64,000 bases of DNA from Bdellovibrionales bacterium (lineage in GTDB: Bacteria; Bdellovibrionota; Bdellovibrionia; Bdellovibrionales; JAGQZY01): assembly GCA_964230555.1 (NCBI GenBank), contig CAXRIX010000078.1, forward strand, positions 10 through 64,009, written 5' to 3'. The translations under genes were made by a program, and so were the position numbers. This document shows, one piece after another, positions 17,132-29,869 of the stretch. Position 1 is the first letter of the stretch; the number at the start of each line of letters is the position of its first letter. Under the pieces are notes generated by a model. That model did not search any database. It had not been told where the DNA came from and was given only the letters and a program-made list of their open reading frames with translations.

Positions 17132-19720
17132 GTGGTTACGTTCGTGCAATTTATTAAATTTAACAGACCTTTGCGTTGTCTCTTTCGATTTCCAACATCG
17201 ACATCGGTGTTCTTGGCCCCCTTAATCTTTGCTTTTGTTTTATTTCACCACCCAGCGATGGCACAAATGGATACCGACTTTTCCGGCGGTGGAGCGGTTC
17301 GCGTCGGCGATTCCACTTCGACTTGTGACAGCGCAACCGCGGGCGCCATCCGTTATGATGCTGATGGCACCAACCTTGTCGGGTTCTGTGACGGATCGAC
17401 GTGGCTCGACTTTGTGACCTCTTCGGTGTCGGGGGTGGTTAATAACGGAAATAGTTTTGCTGCGCCGATGATAATCGGAACCAATGACGCCAATATTCTG
17501 CAGTTTGAAACTGGCGGCACAACACACGTGACCATCGACACCGCTGGTAATGTTGGAGTCGGTACCACCTCTCCTGGCCAGGCCTTAGATGTGCGAGGAT
17601 TCAATAGTCTACCTGCGTCTTCTGGCAGCACCCAAAATGGAGCCCTGAGGGTCTCTTCAACCGGTACCACCATGACCTTAGACGCCGGTGTTCACAGTGG
17701 CTCAGGGGCCTGGATTCAAGCCACCCAGCGCAACCTTTTGAATAACTCATTTAACTTATTACTGAATCCGAATGGCGGAGATGTTGGAATTGGCACTACA
17801 GATCCAGCTGGAAGACTTGAAGTTCAAAGCGCTACAAATGATGACACCAGCTCCGCTCTGATCCTTAAAAATTCGTCGGCCAATAATATTTTGAACGCTC
17901 GCAGTGACGGAAAACTTATCGTTGGCAATGTGAGCGATCCTCACGACGGCCTGGTGGCAATTGGTCATGCCTCATCCCCGACTTATCCCTCGATCGGAAC
18001 TTGGGGAGGCGCCGTCCATATTCTTCCCAGTGGTGGTATCAACGGCAATACCGCTTCAATCACTTTTGGTGCAAATGCTTCTGGCGGCGTTGAAAAAAGA
18101 GCTGAGGCCGGATTGTACGTACAATCGAGCGATGCGTACGGAACGCGGATGCACCTTGCCACCACCAACAGTTATGCCACCGGTTCACAGGCCCGTTTGT
18201 CGATCATGGAGGATGGGAAGGTGGGAATTGGCACTTCAACTCCAGCCGTCGAACTTGATGTGGGCACAGGCTCGATCAATGCAGCCGAAATTTGTGATGA
18301 AAACAATGCCAACTGTTTAGACCTTTCAGCCGGCGCTGGAGGGGGTGGCTACAGTGCTGGTGACACAATTTTATTTGCCGACGGAACCGGAGCCAATCCA
18401 GGATTGGCTTTCAACTCGGATCCGGACACTGGAATTTTCACTCAAGGCAGTGGCGAAATTCGTTATTCAATTAACGGAGGAAATATTGCCACCTTAGACG
18501 GTGGCGGCTTTGTGTCTTGGGGCGGATTGATGGCCGACAATGGTGATGCCACAACCCCTGATTTTCGCTTTGGGCTTGATCCGAATACGGGAATGTTTTC
18601 ACCGGCACCTGACACAATCGGCTTTTCAACGGGCGGCAACGAAGCTCTAACAATAGCCTCTTCCGGTTATGTTGGTGTCAATGAACCTTCGCCCACAAAA
18701 ACTTTACAGGTGGGAGGAGATTTTGGTGCTAGCTCGGTTGAGGTGTATAATGCCTCTGCTGGTGCCAGCCTGACCGCCATGGGTGCCGCAGCGGATGCTT
18801 ACAACTATTCGTACCTGAATCTAGCGAACACCGCGAACAGTAATCAATGGAGTCTTGCCTATAGAAATGGAACCACGATTGGAGCTGACGCCAACAAGTT
18901 AATGTTCAATTATTTTGATGGTAGTACCTATAATGACTTTTTAACATTGGACCCCAGCGGGAACATTGGGATTGGAACCACAGCTCCTTGGGCTCTATTG
19001 CAAATAGAAGACTCAGGTGATGCGCCTCTTATCGCGTTTACCAGCCCAAGTAATCTTAATGGTGGATTGATTATTGGTTCTGATGCAACTTCAGCGTACA
19101 TCGACCAAGTCGAGAATGAACCGCTCTTTATAATGACAAATGATACCACTCGCATGACAATTCTTGCCGGTGGTGATGTTGGAATTGGCACTTCGAGCCC
19201 CAGTTATAAACTGCACGTGAATGGCTCAGTGGCCGGAGTTGGCGCCTACAACAACCTTTCTGACCGACGCCTGAAGCGTGATATCGCGTCGGTGGAAAAT
19301 GCTTTGGACAAATTACTGCAGATTAATGGGGTGCTCTACAATTGGCGACGAGACGACTATCAAGACTACGATTTCCCGTCTGGCCATGACATGGGGGTCA
19401 TAGCCCAAGATGTGCAAAAGGTTTTCCCGGAAGCGGTCTCGCAAAGCGACCAAGGTCTTTTGTCGGTGGCTTATAGTAAGCTGATTGCTCCGATCATTGA
19501 AGCGATTCGTGAATTGAATTCTCGACTACAAAAAACTGAAAAAACTTTGCAATTAGAAGTTTCCGAATTAAAGGCTTCTCAGCAATTGAATGCAACTCAA
19601 AAAGACGCCGAGATCCAAAAACTTAAAAAAGATCTTGAACAAAAGAATGAGAAAATAAACCTTTTGTTAGAGCGAATTGAGATTATTGAGAAGCGACTTT
19701 CAGAAGGCGATAAAAATTAA
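17132..19720 (+). CDS. Secreted tail-fibre-like repeat protein (fibre 1) ending in an intramolecular-chaperone / peptidase S74-type autoprocessing domain
   Basis: 862 aa with a long signal region ending AMA-Q. Six modules end in G(N/D)VGIGT(T/S)xPxxxLxV. The C-terminus reads NNL-SDRRLKRDIASVENALDKLLQINGVLYNWRRDD...GVIAQDVQKVFPEAV...LSVAYSKLIAPIIEAIRELN followed by a coiled coil, the classic S74 chaperone signature. The start is uncertain (GTG 17132, GTG 17144 or TTG 17171). Confidence 0.8.
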   Translation: MVTFVQFIKFNRPLRCLFRFPTSTSVFLAPLIFAFVLFHHPAMAQMDTDFSGGGAVRVGDSTSTCDSATAGAIRYDADGTNLVGFCDGSTWLDFVTSSVSGVVNNGNSFAAPMIIGTNDANILQFETGGTTHVTIDTAGNVGVGTTSPGQALDVRGFNSLPASSGSTQNGALRVSSTGTTMTLDAGVHSGSGAWIQATQRNLLNNSFNLLLNPNGGDVGIGTTDPAGRLEVQSATNDDTSSALILKNSSANNILNARSDGKLIVGNVSDPHDGLVAIGHASSPTYPSIGTWGGAVHILPSGGINGNTASITFGANASGGVEKRAEAGLYVQSSDAYGTRMHLATTNSYATGSQARLSIMEDGKVGIGTSTPAVELDVGTGSINAAEICDENNANCLDLSAGAGGGGYSAGDTILFADGTGANPGLAFNSDPDTGIFTQGSGEIRYSINGGNIATLDGGGFVSWGGLMADNGDATTPDFRFGLDPNTGMFSPAPDTIGFSTGGNEALTIASSGYVGVNEPSPTKTLQVGGDFGASSVEVYNASAGASLTAMGAAADAYNYSYLNLANTANSNQWSLAYRNGTTIGADANKLMFNYFDGSTYNDFLTLDPSGNIGIGTTAPWALLQIEDSGDAPLIAFTSPSNLNGGLIIGSDATSAYIDQVENEPLFIMTNDTTRMTILAGGDVGIGTSSPSYKLHVNGSVAGVGAYNNLSDRRLKRDIASVENALDKLLQINGVLYNWRRDDYQDYDFPSGHDMGVIAQDVQKVFPEAVSQSDQGLLSVAYSKLIAPIIEAIRELNSRLQKTEKTLQLEVSELKASQQLNATQKDAEIQKLKKDLEQKNEKINLLLERIEIIEKRLSEGDKN

Positions 19721-19882
19721 ATCGAAAAAAATAATGCTGTCTTTTTTAGAGTACAATTGTTCTAAACCTCATCCCAGAGCTCCTTGTCTTGGGGGAAAAA
19801 TCTTATTTTGACAGGACCACACTGTGCTTTTTTTATTCAAATTAAAAATCACAAATAATTCGTCTCGATATTGGACTTTAGG

Positions 19883-19909
19883 TCAAGACTTTACCTAAAT
19901 AAACCGATA
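19883..19909 (+). promoter_or_regulatory. Sigma-28 (FliA)-like promoter: TCAAG-N16-CCGATA, with the -10 element 7 nt before GTG 19917
   Basis: TCAAG at 19883..19887 and CCGATA at 19904..19909, followed by gttacac then GTG. Confidence 0.5.
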
Positions 19910-19916
19910 GTTACAC

Positions 19917-22900
19917 GTGGAGACGTTGAGCGGTTTTATTAAAATGTTAAAGATTTCAAAGGCACAGTCGTTTTTCAAAAAACCGACAGGTCCACTTTTC
20001 TTTTTTCTTGTTTTCACCTTATTTTTTAATCCAAACTCTTTCGCGCAAGTCGACACCGACTTTTCGGGTGGTGGTGCCGTGCGTGTTGGTGACTCCACAT
20101 CAACCTGTGATTCTTCAACGGCTGGTGCCATCCGCTACGATGCTGATGGAACCAATTTGGTTGGGTTTTGTAATGGTTCGACTTGGCTCGATTTTGTCAC
20201 GTCTTCCGTATCCGGCGTCGTGAACAACGGCAATAGCTTTTCTGCACCGATGATTATTGGAACCAACGACGCCAATGTTTTACAGTTTGAAACGGGCGGT
20301 TCCAATCGAGTGACTATTGATACTTCCGGGAATGTTGGGATAGGCACAGACAGCCCCAGTGAAAAATTAGAAATTTTGCGAAATTTTGCAGGAATATCTG
20401 ACTCCTTGAAACTTACCAACACCAGCGCTTCGGATAGTCGTGGGTCTGGAGTCTTGTTCCACAGCGGAGCTGTCGACTCGGCTCGCTTGGCCTCAACTCG
20501 TGGATCCAACGATGCTTCAGGAGACCTTCATTTCTTCACTCGACAATCAAATGCTTTGGTGGAGTCTTTGTCGATTGTTGGTGCTAGTGGTTTTGTTGGT
20601 ATTGGCACGACCAGTCCGGCGGTTTCATTGGACGTCAATACAGGATCTATCAATGCAGCGGAAATTTGTGACGAAAACAACGCCAACTGTTTGGACCTGT
20701 CAGCCGGTGTTGCCGGAGACAATCTTGGTAGTCATCTTGCAACCACTTTTCTTAATATGGATGGAAATAATATTCGCCATCTTGGAATTGGAGATGCCGC
20801 CAGTCCCGGTTTGACATTTAGCTCTGACCTTAACACCGGTCTCTGGGCGCCAGCCGGTGACACTATCGCGGCCTCGACCGGAGGGGTTGAACGCTTCAGG
20901 ATCGACTCATCCGGCAATGTCGGGATCGGCACTGGAAACCCTACCGACTTGCTTCACATGTACGGCAGTAGCCCCAACTCCATAGGAATGACCATTGAAA
21001 ACAATAGTTCGGGTGCCAACTCCTATGCTGGAACGCTCTACACGGGTTCGACCGCTAACAATTACCTGTGGACGGGTATTGGAAATGCCGGCTCCGGCTA
21101 CCCTGGTGAGGCCTTTATTGAGGCCGGTGGCGGAGCCGCGGCACTGAACATCGGTTACTCTCCTCCCTTGAAACTATTGACTGGCACAACGGAAAGAATG
21201 CGAATCGACACCTCAGGCCGGGTTGGGATTGGAACAACCGCGACCACCAGTTTGTTGGAAGTTTATCGCAATGAAGATGTTGATCACTCCGATGGCGGTA
21301 TTGTGGCGACCAATGCCAATGCTGGAACAGCTTCAGCCATTGGAATGGGACTCGTCAACGACGAGGGCCCTATTGGTGGTATTACGGCCGGTAGCTCCAA
21401 CTATTCCAATGCCCTTTATCAGTCTCGACTGTCTCTGTATTCCAATGATTCGCTTTCCACCGGTGTGAATATAATCGCACCCCGAGCCGACGCCGACATT
21501 CGATTTGTGACAGGTGGCTTAGGTTCAGGCAATGAGAGAGTTCGAATCGATGCCTCCGGAAATGTTGGTATTGGAACAACTTCGCCCGCTGTTGAGTTGG
21601 ATGTTAACACCGGGTCAATCAATGCGGCTGAAATTTGTGATGAGAACAATGCCAACTGCTTGGACTTATCGGCGGGCGCTGGTGGTGGTGGTTACAGTGC
21701 TGGCGACACAATTTTATTTGCCGACGGAACCGGGGCGAATCCAGGTCTCGCTTTTAACTCGGATCCAGACACAGGGATATACACTCAGGGTAGCGGTGAA
21801 ATCCGGTACACGATCAATGGAGGAAACACGGCCACCTTGGATGGTAATGGCTTCGTCTCTTGGGGCGGACTGATGGCTGACAATGGAGACGCTACGAATC
21901 CCGATTTTCGTTTTGGACTCGATACAAATACCGGAATGTTTTCGCCAAGCGCTGATGCCATTGCTTTTTCCAATGGCGGTACAGAGACATTTCGAATTGA
22001 TTCCGCTGGTGATGTTTGGATTGGGAGTGCCAACCCTAACGTAGAACTTGATGTTAATGGTACAATCAAATCCAACTATATTGATGTTAGCTCAACCTCC
22101 AGCCCCCCCGGCTTCCAATATACCTATAATAACTTTTCCCATGAATTTGATGGCGGAGGAATAGGACCTGACGAAACAATTGTATACGGGTTTAATTCTG
22201 AGATAAATAACATCAGTATTGATTTTCAGGATTATGTCATCACAGGGCAATTTACCAATCGACTGACCGCTGGTTTGGCCGCGGGTCAAGTCGCAGTGGA
22301 TGCTCTCAGTTTCATAAGTACAGGAATGAGTACTTACGAAACCACAGGGGTCGCATCAACAGTGAGTGGCTCCGGTAATATCAATCAAGCCTATGGACTC
22401 AAATCCAGAATTCTTAATTCCAACACGTTGGACTCCTACGGGCTTTACATTGGAACGATCAACGGCGGTGACCAATGGGGAGTTTATCAATCGGGTGCTG
22501 ACGACACCAACTATTTCGCCGGCAATATTGGTATTGGCACAGCCACACCAGAGGTGGAGTTGGATGTTCACACCGGCTCGATCAATGCGGCTGAAATTTG
22601 TGACGAGAACAACGCTAATTGCTTAGATCTTTCGGCCGGAGTCGGTGGAGGCAGTGGCGATATTTCTAACGGCGGTAATACCAACGGAGCGGATATTACT
22701 ATTGGTACCAACGATGCTTACGATTTGAACTTAGAAGCCAGTGGTTCAACTGTTGCGACTGTCTCAAGCGATGGCGAGTTTATTGTTGGATCTCCTAACG
22801 CGATGTTTAGTGGTACCAAAAAGTTAAGAGTTGAATCCAATCCCTGGGATGCGTCAGGTGATTTTGCACACATTAATAACGAAATGTATAAAAACGGTAA

Positions 22901-23738
22901 CGCCCACTTCGGAAAAATTATAGGGATTCGCAATCAAATTCGGGGTGACTCTGGTAACAGTCAGGATGAGCAAATCGCAACCTACAATATGATCACCACT
23001 TGGGCGAACAGTCTGAATTCAGGGATGGGGACCTACAATGAACTGGAAAGCAAAGCTGGGAGTACCACTGACATGACCGGCTCCCTATCCAACTTAACAG
23101 TGGATGGCGGTACAGTACAAAATTACTATGGCTTTCGAGCCATGGCTTCAAATTCGGCCACCCTAACTAACGCCTACGGTCTTTATATCGACGACCTTCC
23201 TGGCACCACAACCTACGGGATTTACCAGGATGGCTCTTCAGATGATAACTACTTTTCAGGAAATGTTGGAGTTGGAACAAATGCTCCTTCAGCAAAGTTG
23301 GAAGTGGTGGGAGAGGTTCGCCCCGTGGATAGTTCCGGCAACAATCGACTTTGGGGTCAAGGTCGCCCGGGGGTTGCTCGGTACGGGACATCCGGCGTCG
23401 AAGCCGGGCTTTGTACCAATGGTGGTGTTTCGTTTGGCTTGAGCTACAGTGCTGTGAATTGGGAAGGCTCAGCCTCGGCTTGTCCTCAAGGGACCTGGGT
23501 TTGTACAGCTGCTGAGAAAGGGACTGCCACTTGCAATACGGCCCGTCCTGACCATGTTTCCAACGATGGAACTGACTGCACTGGGAGCTTTGTAAACTAT
23601 CCATCCAATAATCATCAAGGTTGGGTCGCTGATATCGGTGGCTACGTCAATTCCGGTTATACAATTTCAGAAAATGGCACAACAGACAACGGGCTGTTTC
23701 CATGTAATGCGCAACCCGTTTGGTGTTGTAGTGAATAA
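19917..23738 (+). CDS. Secreted tail-fibre-like repeat protein (fibre 2), a paralogue of fibre 1 with an 8-Cys C-terminal domain and no S74 domain
   Basis: 1273 aa with a signal region ending SFA-Q. The first 83 mature residues are nearly identical to fibre 1. Eight GNVGIGT..P...L.V module ends and three copies of GSINAAEICDENNANCLDLSAG. The C-terminal roughly 115 aa contain 8 Cys and end in WCCSE. An alternative start is ATG 19944. Confidence 0.8.
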   Translation: METLSGFIKMLKISKAQSFFKKPTGPLFFFLVFTLFFNPNSFAQVDTDFSGGGAVRVGDSTSTCDSSTAGAIRYDADGTNLVGFCNGSTWLDFVTSSVSGVVNNGNSFSAPMIIGTNDANVLQFETGGSNRVTIDTSGNVGIGTDSPSEKLEILRNFAGISDSLKLTNTSASDSRGSGVLFHSGAVDSARLASTRGSNDASGDLHFFTRQSNALVESLSIVGASGFVGIGTTSPAVSLDVNTGSINAAEICDENNANCLDLSAGVAGDNLGSHLATTFLNMDGNNIRHLGIGDAASPGLTFSSDLNTGLWAPAGDTIAASTGGVERFRIDSSGNVGIGTGNPTDLLHMYGSSPNSIGMTIENNSSGANSYAGTLYTGSTANNYLWTGIGNAGSGYPGEAFIEAGGGAAALNIGYSPPLKLLTGTTERMRIDTSGRVGIGTTATTSLLEVYRNEDVDHSDGGIVATNANAGTASAIGMGLVNDEGPIGGITAGSSNYSNALYQSRLSLYSNDSLSTGVNIIAPRADADIRFVTGGLGSGNERVRIDASGNVGIGTTSPAVELDVNTGSINAAEICDENNANCLDLSAGAGGGGYSAGDTILFADGTGANPGLAFNSDPDTGIYTQGSGEIRYTINGGNTATLDGNGFVSWGGLMADNGDATNPDFRFGLDTNTGMFSPSADAIAFSNGGTETFRIDSAGDVWIGSANPNVELDVNGTIKSNYIDVSSTSSPPGFQYTYNNFSHEFDGGGIGPDETIVYGFNSEINNISIDFQDYVITGQFTNRLTAGLAAGQVAVDALSFISTGMSTYETTGVASTVSGSGNINQAYGLKSRILNSNTLDSYGLYIGTINGGDQWGVYQSGADDTNYFAGNIGIGTATPEVELDVHTGSINAAEICDENNANCLDLSAGVGGGSGDISNGGNTNGADITIGTNDAYDLNLEASGSTVATVSSDGEFIVGSPNAMFSGTKKLRVESNPWDASGDFAHINNEMYKNGNAHFGKIIGIRNQIRGDSGNSQDEQIATYNMITTWANSLNSGMGTYNELESKAGSTTDMTGSLSNLTVDGGTVQNYYGFRAMASNSATLTNAYGLYIDDLPGTTTYGIYQDGSSDDNYFSGNVGVGTNAPSAKLEVVGEVRPVDSSGNNRLWGQGRPGVARYGTSGVEAGLCTNGGVSFGLSYSAVNWEGSASACPQGTWVCTAAEKGTATCNTARPDHVSNDGTDCTGSFVNYPSNNHQGWVADIGGYVNSGYTISENGTTDNGLFPCNAQPVWCCSE

Positions 23739-23741
23739 AGA

Positions 23742-24698
23742 CTAAGTGTCCCACTGCTCTAAAGCACTGTCATACCCGTAGAATAAGATAATTAAAGCTC
23801 GGACTCCGGATTTGGTGTCGCCGTTTTCTGACTTCAAGCGCATTTTATTGTTCAGGTCAGGAAGATCGTCAGCCCAGTAGCCACCATCGTTTATCAAGTT
23901 TTCGTACATCAAGTTGGCGACTGGTTTTTTCACGCGCACGCAACCATGGGAGTCTTGATGTTTTCCAAGCAAACTGTACTTGTTAGTGCTGGTTCCGTGC
24001 ACGGCCAGTCCAGACCATTTTCCCCATGGGTAAATAAGATCAAAGTAAAGCGAGTGCCACATACCGGTGCCATACCGTTTAACATCTGATTTTGAATGAT
24101 TGATGCGATAGATCCCCGTCGGTGTATCGACATAAGGCTGCGGGTCCGCCGCTTTATGGCTGGCGCCACTGGATACGGGAATAAGGTCTCGCATAATTCC
24201 ATGGCCGTTAATCATGGTACCGTCTAAAGCTTTGATCGTGGTTGCGAAAGCGGGCTGTCCGTTATTGCCAGAGACATCGCTGCGGATACCGACAACCTGC
24301 CCCGCTTTTCTTACAAAAAGTTTTTGATTGGCTTCGGTGCGCTCAATGACCTTCATGTGCTGAGCAGGAATTGGATCAGCCATATTTTGGCGACCTTCGT
24401 AATCAACATTGATAATAAGATAAACGTCAAATTCCTCTTCCATTGTTGGAGTAATATAGGAGGCCACTGTCTCCCAAGACATTTTGTAGTTAAAGAAACT
24501 CACCAGGTGTTTCATGTACTGGCGCCCCGACATTTCAAAATATTCTTTTTCAGATAAGGTCACCATCTCACCGGCGTCGTTGACCTCTAAAATCACGCGA
24601 CCATCGACGAACTTTGGACCACCGGTCTCAAGCTTGACTTGTGCTGATGAAAAAGAAAATTGAACTAATATAGCAACTGCCAAAAGAATTCGGCTCAT
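23742..24698 (-). CDS. Secreted L,D-transpeptidase (YkuD-domain) family protein
   Basis: 318 aa with a signal peptide ending SSAQV and the catalytic signature LAVHGTSTNKYSLLGKHQDSHGCVRV. Confidence 0.8.
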   Translation of the reverse strand: MSRILLAVAILVQFSFSSAQVKLETGGPKFVDGRVILEVNDAGEMVTLSEKEYFEMSGRQYMKHLVSFFNYKMSWETVASYITPTMEEEFDVYLIINVDYEGRQNMADPIPAQHMKVIERTEANQKLFVRKAGQVVGIRSDVSGNNGQPAFATTIKALDGTMINGHGIMRDLIPVSSGASHKAADPQPYVDTPTGIYRINHSKSDVKRYGTGMWHSLYFDLIYPWGKWSGLAVHGTSTNKYSLLGKHQDSHGCVRVKKPVANLMYENLINDGGYWADDLPDLNNKMRLKSENGDTKSGVRALIILFYGYDSALEQWDT

Positions 24699-26250: not shown

Positions 26251-27615
26251 CTATTCTAGGTCAATTCCAAACGACTTAATTTTGCGATGCAAATACGAAC
26301 GCTCAAGACCTATGGCTTCTGCTGTTTTCGAAATATTACCATTGTTCTCGTTGATTTTCTTGATGATGTACTCTTTTTCGAACATCGATCGGGCCTCTCG
26401 AAAACTGCCAGCATCGGAAAAGACGGAGCCCGCGTCTTTTTGATTGAGACCCGCGAATGTTAAGTCGTGAACATCGACGACGTCTTCCTCTGTCAGAATG
26501 TAAATACGCTCAATGAAGTTTTTTATCTCTCGCACATTTCCGGGCCAATCATGTTTGACTAACTCCTTCATGGCCTTAGCTGAAAACTTCTTTTCAGGAT
26601 AGCCGCCACTGAGGCAGGATTTTTCAGAGAAATGACAAACCAAGGGTTCAATATCTTCCCGTCGATCTCGCATCGGGGGAATATTGAAAGGCACGACATG
26701 CAGGCGGTAGTAAAGGTCTTCACGGAATTGTCCTTTGGACACCATATCCTGCAGGTCTTGGGTGGTGGCAGCAATCACTCGCACATCCAATTCCAATTGT
26801 CGACTGCCACCAACGCGCTGAATTTTATGATCTTCTAAATATTTGACCAATTTGGCTTGAACCGCCATCGGAAGTTTATCAACATCATCAAGGAACAAAG
26901 TCCCTTTGTCAGCATGGTCAAAAGAGCCTTTGCGCTCATCGCCATTGCCAATAACAGCCCCTTGCTCGTAACCAAACAACTCACCTTCAATCAGGTCTTC
27001 AGTATTGTGGGCACATTTAAAATCAACAAACGACTGACCGGCACGAGGGCTGAGGTAATGAATGTTCATAGCAACAAGTTCTTTGCCAACACCCTGCTCG
27101 CCTTTAACCAAAACCCAGGAGTTGGTCGGAGCAATGCGAGAAATCAATTCTTTTATTTTCTTTGCCTCATTGGAATTACCAATGATCGCCATATTTTGCC
27201 GTAGCTTATTGAGCAAGGATTTTTTCTCTGTACGGATAGTTCGAACATCGATCAGGTTTTTCAAAAGAATCGTGATCTTGTCCATCGATATGGGCTTTTC
27301 GACAAAGTCCCAGGCTCCTAATTTGGTGGCCTCAACAGCGGTCTCAATGGTTCCATGGCCAGACATCATAATCACATCGGGCCGATTCGGTTGCGGCGAT
27401 AGTTCTCTTAACAGGTCCATCCCATCACGATCACCGGGCATCCAAATATCCAAAAGGACAATATCAGGTTGAAAACGTTCGATTTTCTGGAGTCCCACCT
27501 CAGCGTTTTCTGCAGAATCGACGACAAACCCTTCGTCAGCCAGCGATGCGCAAAGAACTTCACGGATCGGGGCTTCATCATCAATCACCAAAATCTTTTC
27601 TGTTTTATATTCCAA
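26251..27615 (-). CDS. NtrC-family response regulator (REC + AAA+ + Fis HTH) with a degenerate GAFTGA loop, NtrX-like
   Basis: 454 aa with a receiver domain (ILVIDDE...DIVLLDIWMPG), Walker A GEQGVGKE, RED(L)YYRL and a C-terminal HTH. The sigma-54 contact motif reads GAVIGN instead of GAFTGA. Confidence 0.8.
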   Translation of the reverse strand: MEYKTEKILVIDDEAPIREVLCASLADEGFVVDSAENAEVGLQKIERFQPDIVLLDIWMPGDRDGMDLLRELSPQPNRPDVIMMSGHGTIETAVEATKLGAWDFVEKPISMDKITILLKNLIDVRTIRTEKKSLLNKLRQNMAIIGNSNEAKKIKELISRIAPTNSWVLVKGEQGVGKELVAMNIHYLSPRAGQSFVDFKCAHNTEDLIEGELFGYEQGAVIGNGDERKGSFDHADKGTLFLDDVDKLPMAVQAKLVKYLEDHKIQRVGGSRQLELDVRVIAATTQDLQDMVSKGQFREDLYYRLHVVPFNIPPMRDRREDIEPLVCHFSEKSCLSGGYPEKKFSAKAMKELVKHDWPGNVREIKNFIERIYILTEEDVVDVHDLTFAGLNQKDAGSVFSDAGSFREARSMFEKEYIIKKINENNGNISKTAEAIGLERSYLHRKIKSFGIDLE

Positions 27616-27682
27616 AATGACTCCTGGTTTTTTTTGGTTCTACACTAGGCTCTCAACCTTGCAAAGTCCTTTATAACTCACT

Positions 27683-29869
27683 TTAGCCTCGACTGTAAGG
27701 CAGCTCAATACGGGCGACAAGCCCCACAGGCTGATTTCTTTCCAACTTCACGTAGCCACCGTGGTCTTCGACGATCTTTTTCACAATGGTAAGGCCAAGA
27801 CCCGAGCCTCCTGGACGCTTCGAGTAATACGGCTCAAACATTCGACGCATCTCCTCATCAGAGACCGCCTTGCCGTTGTCGATCACACTGATGGTGACTA
27901 AATTATTACTTTCATCCGACTCAACCTCAATACGAATTTCTGGCTTGGCGGCCTCGGAGGTGGCGTTAACAGCATTCTCAACTAGATTGAATACCGCTCG
28001 CTTCAACTGTTCAGGGTCAAAATAGCAAGGTTTTAAGTGATTATCGAGGGCACCAACGAAACGAATTTTTCGGTGGGCGTGCTCATAAAAGGCAATCACT
28101 TTTTCTATCATTTCATTGAGATCACCAAGGCGAGCATGGGTCTCGGGAAGGCGAGCAAATTGGCTGAACTCATTGATGAGATATTTTAATGAATCTGTTT
28201 GCTCGATAATCATGTTGGTGCAAGAGGTGAAGGCGGGGTCATCGATCTCTTTTGAAAACTTTTTCTGCAACCGTTGTGCCGACAGCTTAATGGGAGTCAG
28301 GGGGTTTTTGACCTCATGAGCGATTCGTCTGGCCACTTCTTTCCAAGCTGCGGCTCTTTGCCCTTGCACGACATCAGTTAAGTCGTCAAACGCCACCACC
28401 TTACCAAGATCCTGACCCCGGTCATTATAGAGAGTCGAAATTTTTAACATCGACGGGATACTGGTATTTTTACGATCGATGATGATCTCTTTCTCAATGG
28501 TATTGAGCTTGTGGGTTTTCATTTTACTAACCATCTGGCGATACAATCGAAAGTACTTTTCGTCTAAAACTTCTTGGGCATTTTTATTGATGTAATCTTT
28601 GGTGTTAATCTGCAAAAGTTTGGAGGCCTTTTCATTGATCATTGTGATGCGATCACTTGAGTCTAAAGAAATAACACCGGTGTTGACGTTCGACAAAACC
28701 ACATGCATGTAACGTCGGCGCTGATCCAGTTCCTGCAAAGTGGCCTTTAAGCTATCATTGGCTTCGCTGGTTTCACTTCGATATCGCTCGAGTGCATCGA
28801 CCATGACATTAAAATGCTGAGCCAAGGTGTCGACTTCCGTCTCGCCCGCATCGAGCTCCACTTTTTGATAATTGCCTTCAGCAATTTTTTGCGTGGCCTG
28901 CCCTAAGGTCTCTAGAGAATGAGACAGATGTTTTGAAATATAAACGCCAAACCAGACCGAACAGAATAAAATCATCAAGGTCATTAACACCAGAACGATA
29001 ACGTAGATCGATTTTAAAGGATACTCTAAGGGATTCACTCCCTTCATTTCTTCGTAGGCTAAAGAAACATCGTTCATTTTTGAAATAACAGAGACTGGAA
29101 TAAATGTTGAAATAGCCACCAAGCCTCGCTCATCACCCATTGGCACCATCACTCGTACCAAATTGCCTTGGTTCAATGTGTTGATCGCACTTTTTTCTAA
29201 TCCATCACTGATGACTCGCTTTAGAAGATCCATGGAGGGCGGCGGTATTATCGGTACTGTGGCGTCATCAACAATAGAGATCAACCGCTCACTTTCAAGG
29301 TCAGGATAATACTCGACAACGTCCAGGCTTTGCTCTTTTCTAAAATCGATCAACACTTTCTTTTTTTCATCGCTGCCTCCGGCCTCACGCAGACGTTCAG
29401 CGAGAATAAAAGCGGCATTAAAATTCTTCTTTTTTGCGGTCGAATAGTACTCATCCTGAATCACCACCGCACTTTTTAGAACACCTTGCATTTTGTCACT
29501 GAACCATCGATCAAAGCTTGAGTTGATATAAAACAAGGAGATTACGAACATCAGAGCCGTTGGTACCAAACTGAAAACTAAGAAAGTGGCGATGAGTCGC
29601 GATTTTAAAGAATTACCAATCCAACCTTTGCGGTTGTCGACAAAAGCCTTAAATAAATTTCGAAGAATAAAAAAGGAAAGAAGTAAAAGAAGTATAAGGT
29701 TAAAATTGATGAGCCCAAAAAAGAAAATGGATTGGTTGAGAGGGAGTTGCTCACCAAAACTAAAAATTTTGATTTCAAACCAGGCTAAAATACAGAAAAC
29801 AATGGCAAGAACGATCGACAGAGTGATTTCTCTGTTTTTCTTTCTTGCCTCCAGTCTTTTTATCTTCAT
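27683..29869 (-). CDS. Membrane sensor histidine kinase (TM-HAMP-PAS-HisKA-HATPase), NtrY-like
   Basis: 728 aa with N-terminal TM helices, H-box HEVKNPLTPIKLSAQRL, N-box NLVENAVNA and G-box GSGLGLTIVKKIVEDHGG. Confidence 0.8.
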   Translation of the reverse strand: MKIKRLEARKKNREITLSIVLAIVFCILAWFEIKIFSFGEQLPLNQSIFFFGLINFNLILLLLLSFFILRNLFKAFVDNRKGWIGNSLKSRLIATFLVFSLVPTALMFVISLFYINSSFDRWFSDKMQGVLKSAVVIQDEYYSTAKKKNFNAAFILAERLREAGGSDEKKKVLIDFRKEQSLDVVEYYPDLESERLISIVDDATVPIIPPPSMDLLKRVISDGLEKSAINTLNQGNLVRVMVPMGDERGLVAISTFIPVSVISKMNDVSLAYEEMKGVNPLEYPLKSIYVIVLVLMTLMILFCSVWFGVYISKHLSHSLETLGQATQKIAEGNYQKVELDAGETEVDTLAQHFNVMVDALERYRSETSEANDSLKATLQELDQRRRYMHVVLSNVNTGVISLDSSDRITMINEKASKLLQINTKDYINKNAQEVLDEKYFRLYRQMVSKMKTHKLNTIEKEIIIDRKNTSIPSMLKISTLYNDRGQDLGKVVAFDDLTDVVQGQRAAAWKEVARRIAHEVKNPLTPIKLSAQRLQKKFSKEIDDPAFTSCTNMIIEQTDSLKYLINEFSQFARLPETHARLGDLNEMIEKVIAFYEHAHRKIRFVGALDNHLKPCYFDPEQLKRAVFNLVENAVNATSEAAKPEIRIEVESDESNNLVTISVIDNGKAVSDEEMRRMFEPYYSKRPGGSGLGLTIVKKIVEDHGGYVKLERNQPVGLVARIELPYSRG

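Follow-up and report, generated by a model that had tools for sequence, protein, structure and literature searches.

A tandem pair of probable MAT-type surface fibres with a shared base and different tips from an uncultured Pseudobdellovibrionaceae lineage

What kind of structure is encoded by two adjacent genes whose products begin almost identically, share a further block within a repetitive shaft and end in unrelated sequences, and how has such a pair evolved? The question is raised by two same-strand open reading frames (ORFs), called P1 (862 amino acids, aa) and P2 (1273 aa), in a 64,000-nucleotide (nt) stretch of contig CAXRIX010000078.1 (assembly GCA_964230555.1, Bdellovibrionales bacterium); this whole stretch is referred to below as the window. 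We consider it probable that P1 and P2 are Sec-exported, phage-tail-fibre-like surface adhesins of the MAT type, with a shared base, different tips and an evolution by cassette exchange. Both genes are additions to the MAT kind from another lineage, which is uncultured and whose nearest locus lies in a Pseudobdellovibrionaceae genome. P2 is identical to the public protein P0013. The genes and their terminal parts are as follows (a slash marks the predicted cleavage site).

17132..19720, + strand: gene 1, encoding P1, a MAT-type fibre of the S74 class (PHROG and PDB sequence matches, 6 capping loops)
17132..17263, + strand: predicted Sec signal peptide of P1, aa 1-44, ...HHPAMA/QMDTDF (basic n-region, hydrophobic 12-mer, AxA site)
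19259..19717, + strand: Peptidase_S74 intramolecular chaperone of P1 (aa 710-769; Pfam PF13884) and C-terminal coiled-coil tail
19917..23738, + strand: gene 2, encoding P2, a MAT-type fibre of the non-S74 class (PHROG and PDB sequence matches, 8 capping loops)
19917..20045, + strand: predicted Sec signal peptide of P2, aa 1-43, ...NPNSFA/QVDTDF (hydrophobic core, A-x-A site)
23346..23735, + strand: Cys-rich C-terminal domain (tip) of P2, aa 1144-1273 (profile family, structure model, Foldseek)

Proteins of the MAT family combine a signal peptide, a conserved β-rich N-terminal domain of about 130 aa and a trimeric β-helical shaft with capping loops, and they end either in an S74 domain with the motif SDxxxK or in a non-S74 tip (PMC10769870). 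The consensus of the capping loop is NVGIGTxxPxxKL (Supplementary Fig. 18 in Caulton et al. 2024, PMC10769870). The first-pass annotation of this stretch had described two adjacent same-strand genes for proteins of 862 and 1273 aa, each with a signal peptide, with 6 and 8 modules closed by a GNVGIGT..P motif, with phage-tail-fibre-like shafts and with a resemblance to the MAT proteins of Bdellovibrio bacteriovorus, and all of this is borne out. The ORFs are present as described, and a regular expression finds exactly 6 capping-type motifs in P1 (aa 139, 216, 362, 512, 610 and 681) and exactly 8 in P2 (aa 138, 225, 333, 434, 548, 698, 869 and 1115). Both proteins match PHROG tail-fibre families (E 1e-34 to 1e-40), and the best PDB-sequence matches of both are MAT fragments of B. 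bacteriovorus HD100. For P2 these are 8ond (Bd2133, E 7e-14), 8oml (Bd1334) and 8ojn (Bd3182), and for P1 8ojn (E 1e-7, through a shaft unit) followed by 8ond and 8oml. A profile of the N-domain matches 5/5 MAT PDB sequences via the capping-loop unit GTND..L.FETN..R.TID.SGNVGIGT..P...L.V, with E 3e-15 for Bd2133 and E 3e-13 for Bd3182 and weakly (0.007-0.018) for 8ol4 (Bd2439) and 8on4. NCBIfam holds no model for P1 or P2.

The signal peptides were called heuristically, from the charge of the n-region, Kyte-Doolittle hydropathy over 12 aa and an A-x-A site followed by Q. Judged in this way both N-termini are signal-peptide-like: a basic n-region is followed by a hydrophobic core (VFLAPLIFAFVL, a 12-mer with a mean Kyte-Doolittle value of 2.9, in P1; PLFFFLVFTLFF, mean 2.5 over 12 aa, in P2) and then by AMA/Q in P1 or SFA/Q in P2, directly abutting the conserved mature sequence. 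The true start of P1 may lie a few codons further downstream, and P2 possibly starts at the ATG at 19944. The public match to P1 (P0015, 820 aa) begins at Met43, with MAQMDTDF..., and so comes without the predicted signal peptide. Because the 42 in-frame codons before Met43 of P1 are conserved in gene 1 of a sister species (locus L001, described below), the annotated start of P0015 is probably wrong.

The distal ends of the two proteins are of different kinds. In P1, Pfam recognizes an S74 domain, the 'chaperone of endosialidase' (PF13884, aa 710-769, E 1e-18; 67.8 bits, curated cutoff 22), with the catalytic SDRRLK starting at Ser710 (S710-D-x-x-x-K715); this domain also matches phage fibres and MYRF among PDB sequences. 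P2 has no Pfam match and no S74 domain. As judged from their sequences, P1 thus falls in the S74 class of MATs and P2 in the non-S74 class. The P2 tip follows the pattern RLWGQGRP...W..A..ACP.G.WVCT..E...GWVAD...PVWCC and contains seven cysteines; RLWGQGRP, W..A..ACP.G.WVCT..E, GWVAD and the terminal PVWCC are nearly invariant. Neither Pfam nor NCBIfam has a model for this tip.

A word-index search with the tip returned 10 relatives, and an exhaustive profile search of 1.84 billion representative proteins gave 263 clusters, 231 of them at E <= 1e-10. Among the 150 matches listed, the tip nearly always extends to the end of the protein or to a few residues short of it, and the proteins are mostly 150-550 aa in length, with a few long fibres. 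One long fibre (P0022) carries an N-terminal module of the P1/P2 type together with a near-identical P2 tip. Partners upstream of the tip in 106 family members include Ig_Rha78A_N (18/106), collagen triple-helix repeats (6/106) and SLH (3/106), and the Pfam families Lectin_C, FGE and DUF1566 give 0 matches in the same 106. P0135 is an example with a collagen stalk, an order of collagen and then lectin-like head that recalls the collectin plan, and P0133 has two tandem tip copies. In another Pseudobdellovibrionaceae genome (GCA_016719575.1, locus L008, 971-6492) a 163-aa tip ORF (P0001) lies behind overlapping or abutting same-strand ORFs of 1040 and 632 aa; these ORFs are probably a single long fibre gene split by frameshifts, through assembly errors or pseudogenization.

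A structure model of the tip made with AlphaFold2 (AF2) from 11 sequences has a predicted local distance difference test score (pLDDT) of 76 and a predicted template modelling score (pTM) of 0.74. In a Foldseek comparison with the PDB the top 50/50 matches are C-type-lectin-like domains (CTLDs), among them the snaclecs 1ixx, 1bj3, 1v4l and 3ubu, gp42 of Epstein-Barr virus, and SP-A and SP-D, and against BFVD the top matches are dominated by annotated C-type lectins of herpes- and poxviruses. A CTLD was taken to be a fold with two helices, two sheets and a conserved core of the W..A..C / WIGL type, and W..A..ACP.G.WVCT..E and GWVAD in the tip are similar to motifs of that core. With moderate confidence, we call the fold of the P2 tip probably C-type-lectin-like.

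At the opposite end, directly behind the signal peptide, P1 and P2 share a module of 100-115 aa, the N-module, which is also found in some 13 distinct fibres of related metagenome-assembled genomes. Its first half is a Cys-loop half (GD...C....GAIRY......L..C.G..W) and its second half is the first shaft unit, which matches a Bd3182 shaft unit (E 7e-11). The Cys-loop half gave no match in the PDB, in phages or among the solved MAT fragments. Within the 64-kb window only the P1 and P2 genes carry the N-module (tblastn), and GCA_964351315.1 contains at least two dispersed copies of N-module fibres. Short-domain queries in the word-index protein search can badly underestimate such counts: a search with the 140-aa N-domain returned 2 proteins, a false negative, and the full-length query recovered P2, P1 and about 10 more. 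The 2-protein result was not used for family size.

A further element common to both shafts, not listed as such in the first-pass annotation, is a 'knot' of about 37 aa with two cysteines spaced Cys-X6-Cys, AVELDVNTGSINAAEICDENNANCLDLSAG. P1 has one copy of it and P2 has three. Each knot stands directly behind a capping loop and ahead of a Gly-rich stretch. Its 20-aa core INAAEICDENNANCLDLSAG is identical in 4/4 copies, although the 144-nt segments over these copies are merely 65-78% identical in nucleotides. Neither profile nor sequence searches of PDB sequences with the module made up of the knot and the shared 90-aa block gave anything meaningful. An interchain disulfide and a hinge are possibilities for the role of the knot. 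The shared elements are located as follows.

17270..17518, + strand: N-module of P1, aa 47-129 (95% aa and 78% nt identity to the P2 copy)
18233..18343, + strand: knot of P1, aa 368-404, AVELDVGTGSINAAEICDENNANCLDLSAG (motif scan; no PDB relative)
18335..18604, + strand: shared 90-aa block of P1 (93% aa and 80% nt identity to the P2 copy)
20052..20300, + strand: N-module of P2, aa 46-128 (pairwise identity, divergence estimates)
20607..20717, + strand: knot 1 of P2, aa 231-267 (motif scan)
21576..21686, + strand: knot 2 of P2, aa 554-590 (motif scan)
21678..21947, + strand: shared 90-aa block of P2 (pairwise identity, divergence estimates)
22539..22649, + strand: knot 3 of P2, aa 875-911 (motif scan)

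The first-pass annotation had noted a near-identical 83-aa N-terminal module, a near-identical 90-aa block and unrelated, swappable tips, and from the mostly synonymous differences in the shared blocks had read the pair as old duplicates held by selection at the protein level rather than as products of recent gene conversion. Each of these points withstood the comparison. The copies of the 83-aa N-module are 95.2% identical in amino acids and 77.9% in nucleotides, and third codon positions account for 47 of their 55 nt differences. For the 90-aa block the values are 93.3%, 80.4% and 44 of 53. Nonsynonymous (dN) and synonymous (dS) divergence, calculated by the NG86 method, amount to a dN of 0.038 with a saturated, undefined dS for the N-module and to a dN of 0.043 with a dS of 1.9 for the 90-aa block. 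Since dS is saturated and dN is about 0.04, the copies are old and under purifying selection. The orthologous proS genes of the window and L001 served for calibration (dN 0.018, dS 1.5). The block divergence matches that of these orthologues between species. The paralogous shared blocks therefore date from the species split or from before it, and strong purifying selection holds them. Long exact repeats linking the P1 and P2 genes were not found. The C-termini are unrelated: BLASTP aligns nothing between P1 past aa 703 and P2 past aa 959.

How the fibres have changed is seen in the sister locus L001, from an uncultured Pseudobdellovibrionaceae genome. A scan of genome contigs gave this locus as the one true relative, next to one weak Saccharibacteria match via the capping loop only. 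L001 has the order proS-fibre-fibre-ykuD-cytidylyltransferase as in the window, with flanks that are about 81-83% identical in nucleotides. The alignments directly give the following module breakpoints.

gene 1, L001 against P1: 336 aa extra in L001, between the L001 capping loops at aa 457 and 793
gene 1, P1 against L001: 71 aa extra in P1, between the P1 loops at aa 610 and 681
gene 1: stretch behind the first loop swapped for unrelated sequence, with the left edge at the first capping loop and homology back about 27 aa before the next loop
20925..22019, + strand: 365 aa extra in P2 against L001 gene 2 (aa 337-701), with knot 2 and the 90-aa block in its three modules (global alignment, nucleotide blocks)
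gene 2: different tips behind the last loop (aa 1115), the Cys-rich head in P2 and a Peptidase_G2 intramolecular chaperone in L001

All three large insertions or deletions (336, 71 and 365 aa) start and end in capping loops, and the edges of the 365-aa insert of P2 coincide exactly with its loops at aa 333 and 698. The shafts of P2 and L001 gene 2 are 77-80% identical and their ends differ, the replacement starting about 17 aa behind the last capping loop. This shows directly that the tip is swappable, as the orthologous gene ends in a Peptidase_G2 chaperone in place of the Cys-rich domain of P2.

A second fibre hot spot in relatives is the site between EF-G/dCTP deaminase (dcd) and CNNM/CutA1. 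At this site one relative (L003, 8001-12316) has a second tandem pair, consisting of an 825-aa fibre with a P2-type tip and a 613-aa fibre with another tip. The layout of two tandem fibres on a common base with different tips therefore recurs. The N-modules of that pair are 96% identical in nucleotides, and the identity ends at the first capping loop. The equivalent site in GCA_964351315.1 (L005, 7001-11068; EF-G/dcd-CNNM) holds a single 1355-aa S74 fibre. Across these alignments the capping loop is a recurrent junction, and N-modules occur both as old, diverged sets and as recently homogenised ones. The repeats that encode the capping loops, together with the invariant Cys-X6-Cys knots, could act as in-frame recombination joints, which would make fibre loci hot spots of cassette shuffling that diversify the target range. 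We put this forward tentatively, as less likely than not. If it holds, whole shaft modules and tips would swap between paralogues and between genomes, fast enough for sister species to have different ones; among the tips would be a hitherto unnamed lectin-like head family that sits on collagen, Ig-like and SLH stalks as well. This would be like the mosaicism of phage tail fibres, but in a cellular predator.

The chromosomal surroundings of the pair are those of housekeeping genes. P1 and P2 are directly flanked by proS (divergent) and a YkuD-type L,D-transpeptidase gene (convergent), and the outer neighbours are rpoB, tuf, a SpoU methylase gene, a gene for a Lon-N protein, an NtrC/NtrY-type pair, clpB and a cytidylyltransferase-family gene that is probably coaD. 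The roughly 15 kb to each side of the pair contain no phage, baseplate, sheath or integrase genes, and the guanine-plus-cytosine (GC) content of the fibre genes is not atypical for the window. A scan for promoters and terminators performed no better than on shuffled sequence, and an operon structure is not claimed. The YkuD-type protein (23742-24698, - strand) has a signal-peptide-like N-terminus, its gene is separated from the end of the P2 ORF by a gap of 3 bp, and it is syntenic in L001. Bdellovibrio uses L,D-transpeptidases for prey-wall remodelling, and a functional tie between this enzyme and the fibres is conceivable. Downstream of the fibres, at a distance of about 2.5 kb, come genes for a sigma-54 activator of the NtrC type and a histidine kinase resembling NtrY (26251-29869, - strand), both also conserved at locus L001.

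In view of the above, a MAT-type surface fibre can be set against other explanations. The genes could be tail-fibre genes of a prophage, tailocin or contractile injection system instead of encoding cellular adhesins. The strong PHROG tail-fibre matches, an S74 chaperone typical of phage fibres and distant tblastn matches of the shaft in tail fibres of cyanophages and pelagiphages would all fit such an origin. However, the phage matches are confined to the shaft (aa ~112-730), reach 24-32% identity and never include the tip or the Cys-loop half, the pair is flanked by core housekeeping genes, and phage, baseplate, sheath or integrase genes are lacking for about 15 kb to each side. We therefore reject an origin from a prophage or tailocin. 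The insertion site and its flanks are moreover conserved in the sister species, the GC content is unremarkable, and both proteins have predicted signal peptides, which phage fibres lack; we regard the phage-derived explanation as very unlikely. Ongoing gene conversion between the tandem copies, instead of purifying selection, is another way to keep shared blocks alike, and the L003 pair gives an example of what it might leave behind: its N-modules are nearly identical over 321 nt (dS 0.17) and cease to be alike at the first capping loop, a sign of recent duplication or conversion at that locus. The blocks in the window do not have this appearance. They are merely 78-80% identical in nucleotides and, with a saturated dS, as diverged as the proS orthologues; the two genes have no long exact repeats in common, and conversion tracts looked for among the divergent knot copies gave no convincing recent case. 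For the window pair we consider conversion extremely improbable.

The third alternative leaves the architecture unchanged and concerns function. P1 and P2 could be general surface adhesins or coat fibres, for attachment to particles, biofilms or hosts or for protection, with no role in prey recognition. The shaft family is indeed widespread outside known predators, with 2604 matches at E <= 1e-5, some of them from marine TARA and JGI metagenomes. Members of the tip family occur on stalks of the SLH, Ig-like and collagen kinds. MAT-like proteins of non-predators are listed in the MAT paper too, and single MAT deletions seldom affect predation by HD100 (PMC10769870). On the other hand, the closest loci are in Pseudobdellovibrionaceae or Bdellovibrionaceae genomes, and the best solved-structure relatives are the B. 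bacteriovorus MATs, which are surface-displayed and bind prey glycans (PMC10769870). The rapid turnover of tips between sister species also fits a recognition arms race. We therefore judge a purely general role to be unlikely, though less so than the two explanations discussed above.

Several points weigh against the reading as prey-binding MAT-type fibres with a lectin-like head. Because the shaft family, with its more than 2600 relatives, is spread over very diverse metagenomes and phages, the architecture as such is no proof of a role in predation, and only the taxonomy of the nearest locus stands behind the assumption that the source organism is a predator. The presumed trimer state of the fibres relies on the S74 domain and on homologues whose crystal structures are trimeric. 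The MAT assignment draws on the signal peptide, the shaft and the ends, and homology between the N-module and the N-domain of the HD100 proteins lies outside that basis; the AF2 monomer model of the N-module is all-β with 8 strands and of low confidence (pLDDT 62, pTM 0.39). For the tip, the Foldseek scores are weak (E 0.013-0.1, template modelling score 0.35-0.47), and its profile found no C-type-lectin chain, the Bd2740 tip included, among PDB sequences at E up to 10.

With MAT-type adhesins as the preferred explanation, a mechanism can be proposed that leads from surface anchoring to target binding. Both chains would be exported by the Sec system and lose their signal peptides. By analogy with what has been proposed for the HD100 MATs, the shared all-β N-module of about 100 aa would then anchor the fibre, as its base, to the surface of the cell that makes it. 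From there the shaft would extend as a string of β-helical modules, each ended by a GNVGIGT..P...L.V capping loop, with Cys-X6-Cys knots in between, and would trimerise. In P1 the S74 domain would chaperone folding and then cleave itself off at Ser710, after which the last β-helix would be the working end. P2 has no such chaperone, and its small, disulfide-rich and probably C-type-lectin-like head may fold independently, as in other non-S74 MATs. The distal β-helix of P1 and the head of P2 would provide two binding surfaces, probably for glycans of target cells, or in the case of the P2 head for a glycan or a protein. Since the base is shared and the distal ends differ, one cell could in this way display two binding specificities. 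Surface display, the ligand and a part in prey recognition are what we infer for these fibres from their relatives. The genes themselves would evolve via cassette exchange at capping loops, by gain and loss of modules from loop to loop and by replacement of a lectin-like head with a G2-type chaperone.

MAT fibres are the best current candidates for multi-prey recognition by Bdellovibrio-like predators and have been characterised in essentially one strain; the present pair widens the family to an uncultured Pseudobdellovibrionaceae lineage. One chromosomal site in two species is a natural experiment on where fibres are cut and rejoined, which may be useful for engineering prey range. The tip family, with its 263 clusters and no Pfam model, may represent a new kind of head for glycan binding, and the Cys-X6-Cys knot adds a very strongly conserved shaft element.

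Compared with known systems, P1 is most like the S74-class MATs of HD100 such as Bd3182, with which it has in common a predicted signal peptide, a conserved N-terminal module predicted to be β-rich, a shaft with capping loops and a terminal S74 domain with SDxxxK. HD100 likewise has MAT genes side by side (bd0704/0705 and bd3266/3267), and Bd2133 and Bd1334 are 75% identical in the fibre with unrelated tips (PMC10769870). In Peredibacter 29 MAT genes are largely contiguous and species-specific (PMC13147790). P1 and P2 differ from the HD100 proteins in belonging to another genus and family and in their low identity outside the capping units, and the solved MAT fragments contain no match to the Cys-loop half of the N-module or to the knot. 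The exchange between P2 and its sister-species orthologue follows the same principle as Bd2133 and Bd1334. These two, however, are paralogues of one genome, whereas the exchange described here concerns orthologous positions in two species and a chaperone-type against a lectin-type end.

Among non-S74 MATs, Bd2740 with its C-type lectin fold is a close parallel to P2, which likewise lacks S74 and has a small independent head at its end. The fold predicted for the P2 tip also has PDB neighbours in common with it, as 1bj3, 1v4l and 3ubu, C-type-lectin-like proteins of snake venom, are the neighbours given for the Bd2740 tip (PMC10769870). P2 differs from Bd2740 in being twice as long (1273 against 627 aa), in its full β-helix modules, which are absent from Bd2740, and in the seven Cys and invariant C-terminal VWCC of its tip. 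The FGE-type tip of Bdellovibrio sp. ArHS is non-S74 as well, but P2 gives no Pfam FGE match. Phage fibres and tailspikes with an intramolecular chaperone (endosialidase of K1F, pb1 of T5, and fibres of cyanophages and pelagiphages) have the shaft repeat type and S74 in common with the window genes, which differ in being chromosomal, in their predicted signal peptides, in having no phage neighbours and in a Cys-loop half and P2 tip that phage fibres do not match. The collectins SP-A and SP-D, with a collagen stalk and a C-type lectin head, follow a comparable plan of trimeric stalk and lectin-like head, and their heads are among the fold neighbours of the tip. This is an analogy only, since there is no sequence relationship and calcium-site motifs were not identified in the tip. 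As far as checked, the Cys-rich tip family outside Pfam, the invariant knot, the Cys-loop half of the N-module and the exchange of a chaperone for a lectin-like tip at an orthologous position have not been described for the HD100 MATs. None of these features overturns current understanding; they extend the published picture of MAT fibres without departing from it.

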